A program made the position numbers and the translations under genes. Of a stretch of 32,000 nt of DNA, positions 5,190 through 11,344 are shown piece by piece. Positions within the stretch are counted from its first letter, which is position 1. The number at the start of each line of letters is the position of its first letter. The DNA lies in assembly GCA_046497275.1 (NCBI GenBank), contig JAWOFX010000044.1, positions 1 through 32,000 of the forward strand. The letters are read 5' to 3'. A model generated the notes under the pieces. It ran no database searches. It was not told where the DNA came from and saw nothing but the letters and a program-made list of their open reading frames with translations. The DNA comes from Promethearchaeia archaeon (GTDB taxonomy: Archaea; Asgardarchaeota; Lokiarchaeia; Sigyniarchaeales; SOKP01).

Positions 5190-8039
5190 TTAACTTGTAA
5201 ATGTAGTCATCTTTCGCTTTATCCTGATCCTCCATTTTCGAATCTCATCTATAAGAAACACACTAAAAGCCCCTAAGAGAAGAACAATCCAATATTCTAA
5301 GCGATAAAGGGGTACTACTTTAAAAGCTATTCCTAAGGGTGTATAGAGGATTAATAACTGTAGTCCTAAGGAGAGTCCAGTTGCCCAGAAAAGATGTTTA
5401 TTCGGAAATAACCAAAAGGGCTTGATATTTGAAGTACATGCGAATACAAACAATAATTCACATACTACTAAGTTTGTAAATACTATTGTCTGTGCTAATG
5501 AGATCGCATATTCTCTTGCTGCCGTACCTGCAATCAAATAATTCATAGTTAAATTTGGATCAATTCCCGCTTGAGCCCATGCTGGAATTAAAACTGACCA
5601 TAACAAAAGATAAAGTGTTATATCGGTGATTGATGTATATATTCCAAGTAAAAGAACTGGGCCCTTAATTTCTGTTATTAATGAAAAACCTTTTCGGGGC
5701 TCTTCTTTCATAACATCAGGGTCTGTAGGAGTCAAACCGAGCACCATTGCGGGAATACCGTCCGTTGCAATATTCAACCATAATATTTGAACTGGTACGA
5801 CGGGTAAAGCGATGAAGGTAAATGCGAAGAACTTCATTACGATATATGCCGTAAGAATTAAAAATATTTCATCGAAATTCGTACTTAACATATATCTGAA
5901 GAATCCTTTTGTCGTTTCAAATATTCCTCTTCCTTCTTCTATTGCATCTACTATTGTAGAATAATCATCATCAAGTAAAATCATATCAGACGCCTCTCGG
6001 GTCACTTCCGTTCCTTTTATTCCCATTGCTACACCAACATTTGCTCCCTTTACTGCTGGGGCATCGTTTACTCCATCACCCGTCATTGAGACTACTTTTC
6101 CTTCACCTTTTAATGCCTTAAGTATCCTTAATTTATGTTCAGAAGTCACACGAGCAAAAACATCTATATTTTCAATCCTTCGGAGTAGTTCATCATTAGA
6201 CATTTCTTCTAATTCAGCACCAGTTATCGCTTCTTCATTATCTGTTAATCCAATCTCCTTTGCAATAGCTATAGCTGTAATTTTGTGATCTCCTGTAATC
6301 ATAATAGTTCGAATACCAGCCATTCGTGCTTCTTTGATGGATTGTTTTACCTCATCTCTCGCGGGGTCAATTATTCCTGCCAATCCGAGATATATAAAAT
6401 CTTGTTCAACCTCTTCTTTGGAATATCCCTCTTCTAAAGGTTTATATGCTATTCCCAGTACTCGTAGAGCATCTTTGGCAAATTCTTCGTTTTTAGAAAG
6501 ATATTTATCTTTAATCTTCTCTATTTGTTTAATTTCTCCGTTATAAAGCCCTTTTCCTGCTTTTTCTATAAGAACATCCGGTGCTCCTTTGATTAAGGAA
6601 AATAATTCTCCATTCATTCTAACTACAACAGACATCATCTTTCTATCGGAATTAAAAGGGATTTCATCAACTTTTTCTACTTCAGAATCGATATCCATCT
6701 TTTTTGCTAGGACTTTCAAGGATATTTCTGTAGGATCTCCAATAACATCGGTCTTTTTGGAATTTTCGTTTTTAGGATTGACTGTAGAGTTATTACAATA
6801 CAAGCATACTTCCAAATATCTTTTTAAATAATCATTTTCATCAATTAAGACTGGTTTTTCGGAATTATCCACAATTTTCCCTTCCAGAGAATATCCAACG
6901 CCTTCTACATCATATACCTTCCCTCCGAGAAATACCTTTTTAACTGTCATTTCATTTTTCGTCAATGTTCCCGTTTTATCCGAACATATGATGTTAACTC
7001 TTCCTAACGTTTCAACAGCGGTTAAAGTTTTCACTAAAGCATTCCTCTCCGCCATTCTTCGCATCCCTATACTCATGACTACCGTAATTACAACTACAAG
7101 ACCTTCTGGTACTGCCGATACCGCAAGACTAATTGCTATTTTAAAAGCTTCAATTATTGCATCAATTTCTTCTTGATTGAATTGAAGTCCCTCGTCTATT
7201 GTAATTAATATAAATTCTATAGCAAAAACGGCAAAACAAATAATTAGGATAATTATTCCTAACAATTTCCCAAAACTATCAACTTCCTTTTGAAAGGGAC
7301 TTTTTTCATATTCTTCTTCTTGTATTTTTTCAGCTATTTTTCCTACTTCAGTTTTCATCCCAGTTCTTACTACAATCGCAAGACCATTACCTCGTGTGAT
7401 AACTGTGTTACTGTAGACCATATTTTTTCTATCTGCCAACATTGTTTTTTCGTCATATAATTTAAGATCTTTTTCAACTGGTTGGGATTCTCCTGTAAGA
7501 ATTGCTTCATCAGCGTACAAGGAATAAGCTTTTATGAGTCTTCCATCTGCGGCAATTTTATCACCTTCATCTAATTTAAGTATGTCCCCTGGGACGACTT
7601 CTTTTACTTCAATTTTTTTAACTTTTCCATTTCTAATAACTTTTGCATAATGAGGTGCCATTTCTTTTAGGCTTTCTAATGCTCTTTCTGCCTTATATTC
7701 TTGATAAAATCCTAATATAGCGTTTACGATAAGGATTACAAATATAACAATGGCATCCACAAATTCTGAAGGCTCTTCACCGGAGTAAATGGAATAAACC
7801 CCAATAATAATTGATATAACAATCGCAAAAAATAACAAATAGACCAAGAAATCTTTAAATTGACTAAGAAAAATCTGCCAAGCTGAAATTCCTTTAGTTT
7901 TCTCAATTTCATTTGTACCGTATTTTTCAATTCGTTTTTTAGCTTCCTCTTCACTAAGACCATTCTTTGTCGATGTATCTAATTCATCCGCTACTTTTTC
8001 AACTTTTAATGAATGTACGTTTAATTCTTCATTTTTCAT
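5190..8039 (-). CDS. P-type ATPase, P2A (SERCA-like Ca2+-transporting), copy 2 (tandem paralog)
   Basis: Same motif set as copy 1; colinear with it over the whole length (949 vs 950 aa). Confidence 0.93.
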   Translation of the reverse strand: MKNEELNVHSLKVEKVADELDTSTKNGLSEEEAKKRIEKYGTNEIEKTKGISAWQIFLSQFKDFLVYLLFFAIVISIIIGVYSIYSGEEPSEFVDAIVIFVILIVNAILGFYQEYKAERALESLKEMAPHYAKVIRNGKVKKIEVKEVVPGDILKLDEGDKIAADGRLIKAYSLYADEAILTGESQPVEKDLKLYDEKTMLADRKNMVYSNTVITRGNGLAIVVRTGMKTEVGKIAEKIQEEEYEKSPFQKEVDSFGKLLGIIILIICFAVFAIEFILITIDEGLQFNQEEIDAIIEAFKIAISLAVSAVPEGLVVVITVVMSIGMRRMAERNALVKTLTAVETLGRVNIICSDKTGTLTKNEMTVKKVFLGGKVYDVEGVGYSLEGKIVDNSEKPVLIDENDYLKRYLEVCLYCNNSTVNPKNENSKKTDVIGDPTEISLKVLAKKMDIDSEVEKVDEIPFNSDRKMMSVVVRMNGELFSLIKGAPDVLIEKAGKGLYNGEIKQIEKIKDKYLSKNEEFAKDALRVLGIAYKPLEEGYSKEEVEQDFIYLGLAGIIDPARDEVKQSIKEARMAGIRTIMITGDHKITAIAIAKEIGLTDNEEAITGAELEEMSNDELLRRIENIDVFARVTSEHKLRILKALKGEGKVVSMTGDGVNDAPAVKGANVGVAMGIKGTEVTREASDMILLDDDYSTIVDAIEEGRGIFETTKGFFRYMLSTNFDEIFLILTAYIVMKFFAFTFIALPVVPVQILWLNIATDGIPAMVLGLTPTDPDVMKEEPRKGFSLITEIKGPVLLLGIYTSITDITLYLLLWSVLIPAWAQAGIDPNLTMNYLIAGTAAREYAISLAQTIVFTNLVVCELLFVFACTSNIKPFWLFPNKHLFWATGLSLGLQLLILYTPLGIAFKVVPLYRLEYWIVLLLGAFSVFLIDEIRKWRIRIKRKMTTFTS

Positions 8040-8317
8040 TTTTAGATCAAATTTTATGTAACATTTTTGTATTAGATATTAAAAATATATAAGTTAATAC
8101 TTTAAATTTAATAAATCGATCTAATTCAAAATCTTCGTTTTTATGCTATTTATGAAGAAAGAGTTTATTCAATAGATGTGAATTAATTGTTGATTTTGAA
8201 AATGCTTAACTCATTTTAGTTTAAGAATAGAACTTATTGAGTCATCCCAAAAAATTTTATGTTAAAAGTCTTATTTAATATATAGAATAAAATAGAAACG
8301 ACAATATAAACTCAAAA

Positions 8318-8325
8318 AAGGTGGT
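8318..8325 (+). promoter_or_regulatory. Shine-Dalgarno-like AAGGTGGT upstream of TTG 8328
   Basis: GGTG core 4 nt before an in-frame TTG; the nearest upstream in-frame stop is TAA 8307-8309. Confidence 0.55.
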
Positions 8326-8327
8326 TT

Positions 8328-8708
8328 TTGTTTAGGGTTAAGATTACAAAAACAGCATTAAAATTCATTTATCGAGAACAAGAAAAAAAATATCCGGATA
8401 ACAGCAATCGAAAACCGACAATTGCAGTATTTTATCATCAAAATTCAACGTGAACCACATTTTTCTGTGGTAATATCGTCGAAGTGGTAGATAAAAATAA
8501 AATTCTGAACGATTCGCATCTTTTTATTCTCTGGGATGATGTGGAGGGAAATCCACCTATCGATATATTTATTGAAGATCAAGTAATGGATGAGATTGAA
8601 CAAAAACCGGAATTACTAATTGATGCAGTTATAGGAGAAATAAAAGATAAAGAATATGGGATGCTGTTTATTAAAAAAGATTCAAATATATATATGGATA
8701 AAAAATGA
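8328..8708 (+). CDS. HesB-like (Fe-S biosynthesis-fold) putative selenoprotein 1, 126 aa, Sec at codon 42 (TGA 8451-8453)
   Basis: Translation through the TGA: MFRVKITKTALKFIYREQEKKYPDNSNRKPTIAVFYHQNST-U-TTFFCGNIVEVVDKNK...IDIFIEDQ...ELLIDAV...MDKK*. HesB-like N-terminus (xKIT..A..fI). Homology to the neighbouring paralog on both sides of the TGA. SECIS-like hairpin follows. Confidence 0.8.
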
Positions 8709-8740
8709 TCTGATCTTATAAAACCTCGAAGATTGGGGAT
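8705..8740 (+). ncRNA. Eukaryote-type SECIS element 1 (overlaps terminal stop codon)
   Basis: A-UGA-U (8705-8709), stem CUGAUCUU (8710-8717) with AAGAUUGG (8729-8736), 11-nt loop AUAAAACCUCG, then G-GA-U (8737-8740). Gives the U.U, G.A, A.G tandem core. Confidence 0.8.
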
Positions 8741-8741
8741 T

Positions 8742-8757
8742 GACGGTGCGTCCGTTT
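8742..8757 (+). terminator. Small hairpin GACGG-UGCGU-CCGUU directly after SECIS 1
   Basis: 5-bp stem (one G.U); positional equivalent of the hairpin after SECIS 2. Terminator role is a guess. Confidence 0.35.
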
Positions 8758-8910
8758 ATAGATTCCATATTAATTATGTGCTATAAATTAAAAGACAAAT
8801 ATAGAATAGAATTAAAGTAACTTCTTCTATTAAAATTTTAAAATATAATCTGAATTTTTTATTCAGTTAATTATTTAGATTATACTAAGAATATAATTAA
8901 GAAAAATAAT

Positions 8911-8916
8911 AAGGTG
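8911..8916 (+). promoter_or_regulatory. Shine-Dalgarno-like AAGGTG upstream of probable ATT start at 8925
   Basis: 8-nt spacer to ATT. A similar AAGGTG with a 9-nt spacer precedes the likely livG ATG at 31453. Confidence 0.5.
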
Positions 8917-8924
8917 TTCTTAGT

Positions 8925-9278
8925 ATTAAAATAACTCTTACAGAAGATGCTAAAGAAATAATTAAGGAACAGAGCAAAAAGATTCGTGAAAGAGAAAAAA
9001 TACAAAACATAGTATTAGCGATTTATCAATACACGAGTGGATCTTGATCTGGATATTTTTGCATGGATCTTGTTCAAATGGCAGACAAACGAGACGTTGA
9101 AAAAAATAGGAACTTCAAATATATGACAAATAATAATGGAATTGAAATTTATATAGAAAAAGATACCCTAAGCACTTTAAATTCAATTGAGGAACTAATA
9201 ATCGATGGAAAAGGAATCGAAAGATATGGTCAAAAAACTGCTCGACTTACCTTAATTAAAAATTACTTAAAAAAATGA
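8925..9278 (+). CDS. HesB-like putative selenoprotein 2, about 117 aa, Sec at codon 41 (TGA 9045-9047); probable ATT start
   Basis: Translation through the TGA: (M)KITLTEDAKEIIKEQSKKIREREKIQNIVLAIYQYTSGS-U-SGYFCMDLVQMADK...IEIYIEKD...ELIIDG...NYLKK*. The KITLTEDAKEII N-terminus is characteristic of HesB-like proteins. TGA aligns with that of paralog 1. SECIS-like hairpin follows. Start codon uncertain: no in-frame ATG/GTG/TTG upstream of the TGA. Confidence 0.8.
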
Positions 9279-9310
9279 TCTAATCTTACAAATATTAGAA
9301 GATTAGTGAT
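9275..9310 (+). ncRNA. Eukaryote-type SECIS element 2 (overlaps terminal stop codon)
   Basis: A-UGA-U (9275-9279), perfect stem CUAAUCUU (9280-9287) with AAGAUUAG (9299-9306), 11-nt loop ACAAAUAUUAG, then U-GA-U (9307-9310). Confidence 0.82.
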
Positions 9311-9314
9311 TTTT

Positions 9315-9335
9315 CAGGTTGCGCCTGTTTTTTTT
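9315..9335 (+). terminator. Hairpin CAGG-UUGCG-CCUG followed by an 8-T run, after SECIS 2
   Basis: 4-bp stem plus T-tract 9328-9335, in the gap before the convergent aconitase stop. Confidence 0.45.
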
Positions 9336-9418
9336 AAATAAATGTGATTTATTCACATTCTTCTTTTATTTTTAATATAATATGAATATCGTAAAGAAGA
9401 AATGAAAAATAAACAATT

Positions 9419-11344
9419 TTATTTTTGTTTGTTTCTGATATATGGCAATTTTCCGCCAGCTCTTAAAATCTCAGTCATTCTATTACTTAAATTATGAATT
9501 ACAGGTATTTCAGAATTTTGTGTGAGATTATGTACCATTAATTCTCTTTTCTCAAGAGATTCTAATTCAATTTCTATCTCATCGTCTTGATCAATAAGAT
9601 CATAATCATTCAATCTCTGAAAAGTTAAAGGCACAATTCCGAAATTAACAAGATTATCTAAATGGATTCTTGCAAACGATTTGGCAATAATCGCTTTAAT
9701 TCCCAAATATTTAGGAGCTATTGCAGCATGTTCTCGACTTGAACCTTGACCATAATTTTCTCCTCCTATAATAAATCCTCCATCACTTTCCAATGCTCTT
9801 TTTGAAAAGCTTGGGTCTATAGGATTGAAAACATATTGACTAATCTCGGGAATGTTACTTCTCAAAGGTAGAATTTTTGCTCCCGCAGGCATTATATGAT
9901 CCGTTGTAATATTATCTTCTACTTTAAGTAATACTTTTCCCTCCAATTTGGCAGCTAACGGAGGAAATTCCGGTAGAGATTTTATATTAGGCCCTCTGAC
10001 AATTTGTACATCTTTGGCCTCCCTAGGAGGTAAAGGGGGGATGATCATATTATCATTCACAATGAATTTTTTAGACATTTGTATTTTAGGAAACTCACCA
10101 AATTTCCGAGGATCTGTTATTATTCCTTCGATTGCAGCCATTGCAGCAGTCTCAGGACTTACAAGATATACGCTAGCACTTTTCGTTCCAGATCTGCCAA
10201 GAAAATTTCTATTAAATGTCCTTAAAGACACAGCATCACTTTTAGGAGCTAATCCTTGACCAAGACATGGTCCACAAGCATTTTCAAGGATCCTTGCTCC
10301 AGCTTCAATAAAATAGGCCATTTCTCCAGAACGAATCATATGGTTCACTACTTGACGAGATCCTGGAGAAATTGTAAGGACGGTATGTTGACTGATTGTT
10401 TTGTTTTTAAGCATATTAGCAGCAATTTTTAAGTCTCTTAGAGAAGAATTTGTACAACTGCCAATACAAACTTGATCAACATTCAATCCTTCAATTTCAT
10501 GTATTGGTTTAACATTCCCAGGACTATGAGGTTCAGCTACTAGAGGTTCAAGTTCATCTAAATTAATTTCGATAACATCATCATAGATAGCATCCTTATC
10601 CGGCTCTAATGAGGTCCACACTTCTTCTCTACTTTGTGCTTCTAAAAATACTCTTGTAATTTCATCCGATGGGAAAATTGAAGTTGTTGCTCCTGTTTCT
10701 GTTCCCATATTAGTGATTGTTGCTCTTTCTGGAACAGAAAGTGTACTAATACCCGGACCAGTATATTCTAATATCTTATTTACCGCTCCTTTCACGCCTA
10801 TTCTTCTTAAAACTTCTAAAATAATATCTTTTGCTGAAACAAATTCAGTCAATCTTCCAGTTAAACGTACATTAACAATTTCTGGCATTCTAAGATAGAA
10901 AGGCTCTCCTGCCATAGCAGCAGCAACATCTAACCCTCCTGATCCGATTGCAATCATTCCTATGCCTCCACAAGTGGATGTATGACTATCACTGCCTAAT
11001 AAACTTTTTCCAGGAACAGAGAATCTTTCAAGATGGATTTGATGACATATTCCATTTCCTGGTCGAGAAAAGAATAATCCATATTTAGCAGCAATATTCT
11101 GAAGATATCTATGATCATCTGCATTTCTAAAATCTGTTTGTAGGATATTATGATCCACATAACTTACGGATAATTCCGTTTTTACTCGTGGTACGTCCAT
11201 TTTTTCGAATTGAAGATATGTCAGCGTCCCTGTTGAATCTTGGGTAAGTGTTTGGTCCATTCTTATTCCAATCATTTCACCCTTTTTGGATTCTCCATCG
11301 ATGAGATGATCCTTTAAGAGCTTTTCCGCAAGTGTGTATCCCAT
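9419..11344 (-). CDS. Aconitate hydratase, single-chain about 640-aa type (aconitase family)
   Basis: DQTLTQD, VDHN, GICHQ, GSDSHT, IGSCTN, NACGPCLG, NRNF.GR, ITTDHI and NYGQGSSREHA motifs; three Fe-S ligand cysteines present. Confidence 0.9.
   Translation of the reverse strand: MGYTLAEKLLKDHLIDGESKKGEMIGIRMDQTLTQDSTGTLTYLQFEKMDVPRVKTELSVSYVDHNILQTDFRNADDHRYLQNIAAKYGLFFSRPGNGICHQIHLERFSVPGKSLLGSDSHTSTCGGIGMIAIGSGGLDVAAAMAGEPFYLRMPEIVNVRLTGRLTEFVSAKDIILEVLRRIGVKGAVNKILEYTGPGISTLSVPERATITNMGTETGATTSIFPSDEITRVFLEAQSREEVWTSLEPDKDAIYDDVIEINLDELEPLVAEPHSPGNVKPIHEIEGLNVDQVCIGSCTNSSLRDLKIAANMLKNKTISQHTVLTISPGSRQVVNHMIRSGEMAYFIEAGARILENACGPCLGQGLAPKSDAVSLRTFNRNFLGRSGTKSASVYLVSPETAAMAAIEGIITDPRKFGEFPKIQMSKKFIVNDNMIIPPLPPREAKDVQIVRGPNIKSLPEFPPLAAKLEGKVLLKVEDNITTDHIMPAGAKILPLRSNIPEISQYVFNPIDPSFSKRALESDGGFIIGGENYGQGSSREHAAIAPKYLGIKAIIAKSFARIHLDNLVNFGIVPLTFQRLNDYDLIDQDDEIEIELESLEKRELMVHNLTQNSEIPVIHNLSNRMTEILRAGGKLPYIRNKQK

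Follow-up and report, generated by a model that had tools for sequence, protein, structure and literature searches.

Two tandem paralogous genes in the window, i.e., the whole 32,000-nt stretch of a Promethearchaeia archaeon contig analyzed here, appear to encode small HesB/IscA-fold selenoproteins, and the terminal TGA of each is the UGA of the AUGA motif that opens a Loki-type SECIS element. We consider it likely that the overlap arose incidentally in this lineage, as a variant of the arrangement fixed in VhuU, and that the UGA acts as a plain stop. Each mRNA would carry its SECIS directly behind the ORF, and in the HesB/IscA-fold family as a whole the element seems always to adjoin or overlap the ORF end. 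The initial annotation described the pair as Asgard selenoprotein genes with eukaryote-like SECIS elements whose core UGA is the in-frame terminator, a description that is correct. The features concerned are the following.

8328..8708 (+): gene 1, HesB/IscA-fold selenoprotein, 126 codons (predicted from translation, ortholog column and AF2 fold)
8692..8770 (+): outer helix I of SECIS 1, in which the last sense codons (8692-8698) are predicted to pair with 8764-8770 (RNAfold MFE)
8705..8739 (+): SECIS 1, with core AUGA 8705-8708, helix II 8710-8717/8729-8736, 11-nt loop 8718-8728 and 3' GA 8738-8739
8709..8786 (+): putative 25-codon extension of gene 1, read as non-coding 3' UTR (SECIS RNA)
8742..8756 (+): mini-hairpin 3 after SECIS 1 (GACGG / UGCGU / CCGUU), predicted by folding
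about 8925..9278 (+): gene 2, a diverged paralog of gene 1 (from translation and sequence)
9275..9309 (+): SECIS 2, with core AUGA 9275-9278, helix II 9280-9287/9299-9306, 11-nt loop 9288-9298 and 3' GA 9308-9309
9279..9341 (+): putative extension of gene 2 by 20 codons, interpreted as non-coding; its TAA (9339-9341) lies past the RNA end observed at 9325
9315..9335 (+): mini-hairpin 3 after SECIS 2 (CAGG / UUGCG / CCUG, 9315-9327), followed by a U8 run (9328-9335), predicted by folding

Gene 1 starts with TTG at 8328, and its translation places the Sec-UGA at 8451-8453 within the motif U-T-T-F-F-C. The Sec-UGA of gene 2 lies at 9045-9047 (U-S-G-Y-F-C), and the two proteins, at 28% identity, have the U-x4-C motif in common. 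In both genes the next in-frame stop after the Sec codon is the SECIS core TGA (8706-8708 in gene 1 and 9276-9278 in gene 2), which leaves 255 nt and 231 nt, respectively, between Sec-UGA and terminal UGA. As first noted from the sequence and confirmed by the translations, both 3' ends read AAA AAA TGA TCT, and the frames stay open past this UGA for 25 codons in gene 1 (up to TAA 8784-8786) and 20 codons in gene 2 (up to TAA 9339-9341). We found no in-frame ATG, GTG or TTG between the TAA TAA at 8907-8912 and the conserved N-terminus of gene 2; its start is likely the ATT at 8925, 8 nt after a GGTG (8913-8916), and in genomes G002 and G004 a TTG stands at the place of this ATT.

The two elements have the same layout. 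AUGA and one nucleotide precede a helix of 8 bp, which is capped by an A-rich loop of 11 nt with G as its last base, and one nucleotide separates the helix from the 3' GA; the apical loops are AUAAAACCUCG and ACAAAUAUUAG. Helix II consists of 8 standard pairs plus a U.G or U.U at its base (a 9-nt arm), and a quartet of the form U.U / G.A / A.G / U.(U or G) is possible at the base of both hairpins. When the SECIS elements of the family were aligned, the AAA and the final G of the loop were invariant, as was the 3' GA (8738-8739; 9308-9309), for which tandem sheared G.A pairs with the UGA are predicted to be possible. Covariation among 24 family members supported helix II: 7 of its 9 pairs showed double (compensatory) changes, 93% of cells were paired and the covariation score was reached by 0 of 500 shuffles. 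The covariance model matched SECIS 1 with 48.3 bits (E 6e-7) and SECIS 2 with 60.8 bits (E 7e-10). Folding energy set SECIS 2 apart (z -2.4), while RNAfold alone did not single out SECIS 1 (z about 0); the prediction of SECIS 1 is supported by comparison, not energy. No Rfam family reached its gathering score in the window. At a relaxed threshold, a C/D-box snoRNA gave a weak match over SECIS 1 (21 bits vs. a gathering score of 38), which we read as K-turn likeness.

Both hairpins have every feature given for the lokiSECIS, namely an AUGA just 5' of the main stem, a 9-nt arm, a loop of 11 nt that begins A-rich and closes with G, and a GA just 3' of the stem (PMC4989117), and they fit the type I eSECIS-like model in PMC11227280. 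The element type admits 7-15 bp for the main stem and AA in place of GA. The elements of those reports and the ones described here share the AUGA, the 9-nt arm of 8 pairs plus U.U or U.G, the 11-nt loop, the GA and the place behind the ORF. With eukaryotic SECIS elements they share the quartet (U.U / G.A / A.G / N.N), the A-rich apical loop and the 3'-UTR place, but helix II is shorter here. Also as in eukaryotes, a UGA too near the element appears to be read as a stop. We know of no SBP2 for Asgard SECIS elements.

Beyond the canonical element, a G+C-rich hairpin of 3-7 bp, often with a UUGCG or UGCG loop, was predicted after the SECIS GA in 30 of 30 folded elements, 24 of them from the HesB/IscA-fold family and 6 from other genes. 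In about 26 of the 30 this is a clear short stem-loop beginning 2-6 nt past the GA, with stems that differ in sequence. The hairpin also follows SECIS elements on contigs C109, C100, C167, C74, C118, C44 and C114 of this genome (G000). The outer helix I of SECIS 1 encloses the core, helix II and hairpin 3; roughly 11 of the 18 gene-1 orthologs have it as well, and the compensatory variants AUACGG/CCGUAU and CCUAUGG/CCAUGGG occur among them. A three-helix structure closed by pairing of the last codons is predicted for VhuU as well as for many gene-1 orthologs. In the parts of the published lokiSECIS descriptions considered here (PMC4989117, PMC11227280), neither the mini-hairpin after the GA nor the last-codon outer helix is described, but both are present in the elements reported here.

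The AF2 model of the gene 1 protein (pLDDT 87, pTM 0.79) was compared with the PDB by Foldseek, and the best matches were IscA (1r94), SufA (2d2a) and IscA (1s98), with probabilities of 0.99-1.0 and TM scores of 0.5-0.6. On the basis of this model, the gene 1 product is predicted to have an IscA/SufA-like fold. Sequence profiles gave less: TIGR01911 matched 2 of 23 members, all below threshold (best E 1.3e-3), PF01521 likewise hit 2 of 23, its best match (E 9e-5, 23.1 bits) falling short of the cut-off of 26.3, and a profile search of PDB sequences with the family returned no match. The family resembles the HesB-like selenoproteins (TIGR01911, motif UxGP) and the CC/Se motif family (NF041239) in its small size, IscA-like fold, obscure function and a Sec where IscA proteins have their first cysteine. 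However, its matches to TIGR01911 and NF041239 are sub-threshold (best E 1.3e-3 and 6e-3, respectively), its motif is U-x4-C, the C-terminal CxC is absent and nearly all members found belong to one Promethearchaeota family.

Searches in all six frames, first of 41 relatives and then of 301 genomes from the phylum, turned up the family in hardly any genome outside this one taxonomic family; a related-locus search with gene 1 alone as query returned no match. The closest named relatives of the genome, identified through the adjacent aconitase-like gene, are Promethearchaeota (Asgard) MAGs. About 40 loci were found in related genomes (L001-L029, L051-L080); tandem pairs are frequent, and a third, Cys-containing paralog is present in some. 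The U-x4-C family is widespread in that Promethearchaeota family and is absent from the Asgard selenoprotein families listed in PMC11227280 (section 13). All orthologs have one in-frame TGA at the same alignment column. In two genomes, third paralogs have Cys at the Sec column, no SECIS and a TAA stop; judged by alignment, Cys paralogs that lack the element are a classic Sec/Cys signature. The genome also has SepSecS, SelD with an in-frame TGA, and tRNA-Sec, which was found with Rfam RF01852 (aragorn listed none). Indirect support for the prediction that these SECIS elements direct Sec insertion at the upstream in-frame UGA of their genes comes from the single alignment column that the UGA keeps in about 40 genes, from the absence of the element in Cys paralogs and from the Sec machinery encoded in the genome.

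To compare the position of stop and SECIS, we located the Sec codon, terminator and SECIS in each of 37 orthologs from 29 other genomes. The initial annotation had asked whether orthologs keep the AUGA core in frame with the stop. They do not: the core UGA served as the stop in 0 of the 37, and their terminators were TAA in 34 and an upstream TGA in 3, the latter 6, 14 and 20 nt before AUGA. The distance from stop to AUGA ranged from 3 to 45 nt (median 7), and relative to the ORF the core UGA fell in frames 0, 1 and 2 in 8, 13 and 16 orthologs, respectively, so that it was in frame in 8 of 37, less than the one third expected by chance. Since the SECIS of orthologs lies at variable distance and frame from the stop, which was the pattern named at the outset as pointing to an incidental overlap, a designed overlap is disfavored. 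The core itself was AUGA in 32 of 37 orthologs, and AUGU, ACGA or GUGA in the others. Such variant cores stand in otherwise conserved elements, e.g., ACGA in gene 2 of G002 (L018:2454-2531) and AUGU in three genomes (L058, L060, L066). The ortholog in G198 (L074) has about 40 nt inserted in the apical loop.

Comparison with the same-genus genome G002 suggests how the two ends arose. For gene 1, AAT GTA TAT GGA TAA AAA TGA in G002 corresponds to AAT ATA TAT ATG GAT AAA AAA TGA here, a difference of +2 in a TA repeat and +1 in an A-run. For gene 2, a deletion of about 10 nt took out the TAA. The residues gained are MDKK and YLKK, and they belong to a disordered tail (AF2 pLDDT <50 for residues 120-126). 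By this comparison, the core-UGA stop is a recent, genome-specific state derived from a UAA-terminated ancestor. Gene conversion between the two 3' ends was also considered and is unnecessary, as AUGAUCU occurs in several orthologs as well and the stops were lost by different mutations.

From these observations we propose the following course of events. The ancestral and usual terminator would have been a UAA in an A-rich stretch, 3-45 nt before the AUGA core, and this UAA would have been lost twice in this genome. In gene 1, the +2 change in the TA repeat would have put the UAA out of frame and the +1 change in the A-run would have brought the core into frame; in gene 2, the deletion of about 10 nt would have removed the UAA. 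Because the UAA is lost, translation would go 3-4 codons further, until it meets the next stop in frame, i.e., the invariant core UGA of the SECIS, and the added tail of 3-4 residues on a disordered C-terminus would probably be tolerated. While a ribosome has the core UGA in its A site, its mRNA channel would enclose the core and most of helix II; the element could then not fold to recruit Sec-tRNA, and the release factor would win. At the Sec-UGA, 231-255 nt upstream, the element would be free and would work normally. That translation ends at the core UGA, and that it does so for steric reasons, is what we infer from this arrangement, and the steric argument draws on bacterial and eukaryotic ribosomes, not on those of Asgard archaea.

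UGA is a minority stop in this genome, as had been claimed from the window: among frames of at least 200 codons, 70.8% end in TAA, 14.9% in TGA and 14.3% in TAG. A pattern scan and the covariance model together located 11 Loki-type SECIS elements genome-wide, and the element of SelD brings the number to twelve. The core UGA is the terminator in three of these genes (gene 1, gene 2 and VhuU), one VhuD has a UGA stop directly adjoining AUGA, and the remaining genes have UAG or UAA 4-33 nt upstream. UGA therefore ends 4 of 12 SECIS-bearing genes vs. 15% genome-wide. In VhuU, the core-UGA stop was present in 31 of 31 copies (29 genomes, 12 genera), where ...GGA UGA falls within AUGA (UUGA in one copy) and the Sec-UGA lies 84 nt upstream. 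RNAalifold predicted a three-helix structure for VhuU. Its helix I, formed by the last codons with sequence downstream of a second small hairpin, covaries, with UA/CG at 14/13.

Earlier reports already describe such overlaps. In Loki VhuU.1, the AUGA motif doubles as the stop codon, many stops are UGA, and a minimal-distance rule was proposed (Mariotti et al., 2016; PMC4989117); the stop UGAs of Lokiarchaeia were said to 'often overlap' AUGA (Huang et al., 2024; PMC11227280). The overlap of stop and core is a described feature, to which the present genes add a further gene family. Loki VhuU.1 and the genes described here are alike in having the core UGA as in-frame terminator, a Sec-UGA upstream and the same type of SECIS. 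In VhuU, however, the state is fixed, the last codons form helix I and the Sec-UGA is 84 nt up, whereas here the fold is HesB/IscA, the state is recent and the distance is 231-255 nt. In M. maripaludis, a SECIS relocated to directly behind the ORF was still functional (PMC9622424).

Another study's independent DNA run yielded contigs identical to the window over 8314-8784 and 8891-9344, and contigs from RNA libraries match both gene ends. Since the independent DNA contigs are identical and the RNA contigs match, the sequence is real. RNA contigs from two salt-lake metatranscriptome studies both stop at 9325 and then run into adapter; this position falls within hairpin 3 and precedes both the U8 run and the TAA at 9339-9341. 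It is possible that 9325 is the mRNA 3' end of gene 2, which hints at an mRNA that has no stop codon for the supposed extension. Stretches that no RNA contig covers, e.g., 8796-8950, are uninformative on transcription.

An error of assembly or sequencing in the TA repeat and A-run could in principle have produced false frames in genes that truly end in UAA, and the gene 1 changes do sit in slippage-prone repeats. However, the independent DNA and RNA contigs are identical over both gene ends and show no other letters or indels, and the difference in gene 2 is a deletion of about 10 nt rather than a homopolymer error, so that we regard an error as the least probable of the readings weighed here. 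It is scarcely more probable that the second UGA is sometimes decoded as Sec, as had been suggested, to give a C-terminal extension of 25 or 20 residues (SDLIKPRRLGI..., SNLTNIRRLVI...). The two open frames, with their first 11 residues alike, invite this reading, as does the observation that the C-terminal Cys ligands usual in IscA-type proteins are missing from this family. But xNLxNxRRLxI can be read in the core frame from all 31 family SECIS elements, including those of orthologs in which it follows a UAA or is out of frame and would be untranslatable, and the same frame stays open for 3-71 codons (median 20) across these 31 elements; the two open frames past the UGA are no longer than chance would give. 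Only two copies would be translatable, both are under constraint from RNA pairing, and the base differences between them keep pairing, not amino acids. Since the RNA is conserved and ortholog open lengths run from 3 to 71 codons, the likeness of the two peptides and their lengths carry no signal, and the likeness is a by-product of RNA conservation. In addition, a SECIS could not fold with its own core in the A site, and the gene 2 RNA contigs of both studies end at 9325, before the TAA. The extension is unsupported.

Selection for a stop at the core is somewhat less implausible, and we still consider it unlikely. Termination within the K-turn would couple protein release to transient melting or remodeling of the SECIS, and thereby tune Sec insertion by trailing ribosomes or mRNA stability. 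The two genes of one genome reached the same end state by different mutational routes, the arrangement is strictly kept in VhuU (31/31 copies, 12 genera), and 4 of 12 SECIS-bearing genes end in UGA vs. 15% genome-wide, all of which would fit selection. Yet 0 of 37 family orthologs have the core-UGA stop, the core is in frame in 8 of 37, under the one-third chance level, and a UAA 3-9 nt before AUGA would let the terminating ribosome melt the core too, so that the overlap adds nothing qualitatively new; the conservation in VhuU may just reflect last codons and a stop that are locked into helix I and the core. The more specific proposal that selection favored the core-UGA stop because a ribosome in the K-turn displaces a SECIS-binding factor and resets the element, making Sec insertion termination-dependent, is less probable again; if true, such resetting would give Asgard selenoprotein mRNAs a built-in feedback of their own. 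The idea that the terminating ribosome unwinds the SECIS holds insofar as it is physically implied. The feedback inferred from it does not appear to be special to this genome, since orthologs with a close UAA (3-9 nt upstream) or a last-codon helix I would also lose the folded core. An incidental overlap with a plain stop remains our preferred explanation, with the caveat that the core-UGA state was gained by both paralogs of one genome but by none of the orthologs in 29 other genomes; had the two changes occurred independently, the coincidence would be improbable and might point to selection specific to this lineage.

A recoding element that gates the termination of its own gene, or that inserts a second Sec, would have been a new regulatory principle, and the comparative data argue against both. 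What the family offers is a natural series, in which the stop that goes with one type of SECIS stands at -1, at 3-9 or as far as 45 nt from the core, and VhuU always has it at the core itself. The series suggests that Asgard SECIS function tolerates melting by every terminating ribosome.

A further gene bears on how near to the element a UGA may be read as Sec. It encodes a zinc-ribbon protein of 36 aa (CxxC...CxxC; G000:C167:696-806 on the minus strand, locus L033:174-287:-), and about 19 of 24 orthologs (L197-L218) end in ...FK-UGA-UAA/UAG with a lokiSECIS 30-60 nt downstream, while homologs that lack the SECIS end in ...FKC-TAA/TAG. The protein looks like a tiny selenoprotein with a C-terminal Sec, outside the seven published families of Asgard selenoproteins. 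In G000 its UGA is only 33 nt before AUGA and seems to be read as Sec, with the SECIS acting at very short range. In eukaryotes, work by Martin et al. in 1996, cited in PMC4989117, reportedly put the UGA-SECIS spacing at 51-111 nt, a minimum that the 33 nt of the zinc-ribbon gene would undercut. The switch from stop to Sec is suggested to lie between about 20 nt, the farthest upstream UGA read as a putative stop, and 33 nt; such bounds would be useful for annotating Asgard selenoproteins and for reporters of the archaeal-to-eukaryotic SECIS transition. The HesB/IscA-fold family, the zinc-ribbon protein with C-terminal Sec, and the extra hairpin and outer helix look more novel than the overlap itself.

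Three further ORFs are candidates for additional selenoproteins (G000:C118:76013-76495, minus strand; G000:C74:12108-13052, plus strand; G000:C100:58534-58746, minus strand). No Pfam match was obtained for the three; each has an in-frame UGA and a lokiSECIS 11-25 nt after its UAA, and one has adjacent UU in ...GCUU.... The neighbors of the tandem pair in the window are genes for a P-type ATPase (949 aa, 5190-8039, minus strand) and an aconitase-family protein (641 aa, 9419-11344, minus strand), the best relatives of the latter including Promethearchaeota, Bathyarchaeia and several bacterial MAGs at 61-75% identity.
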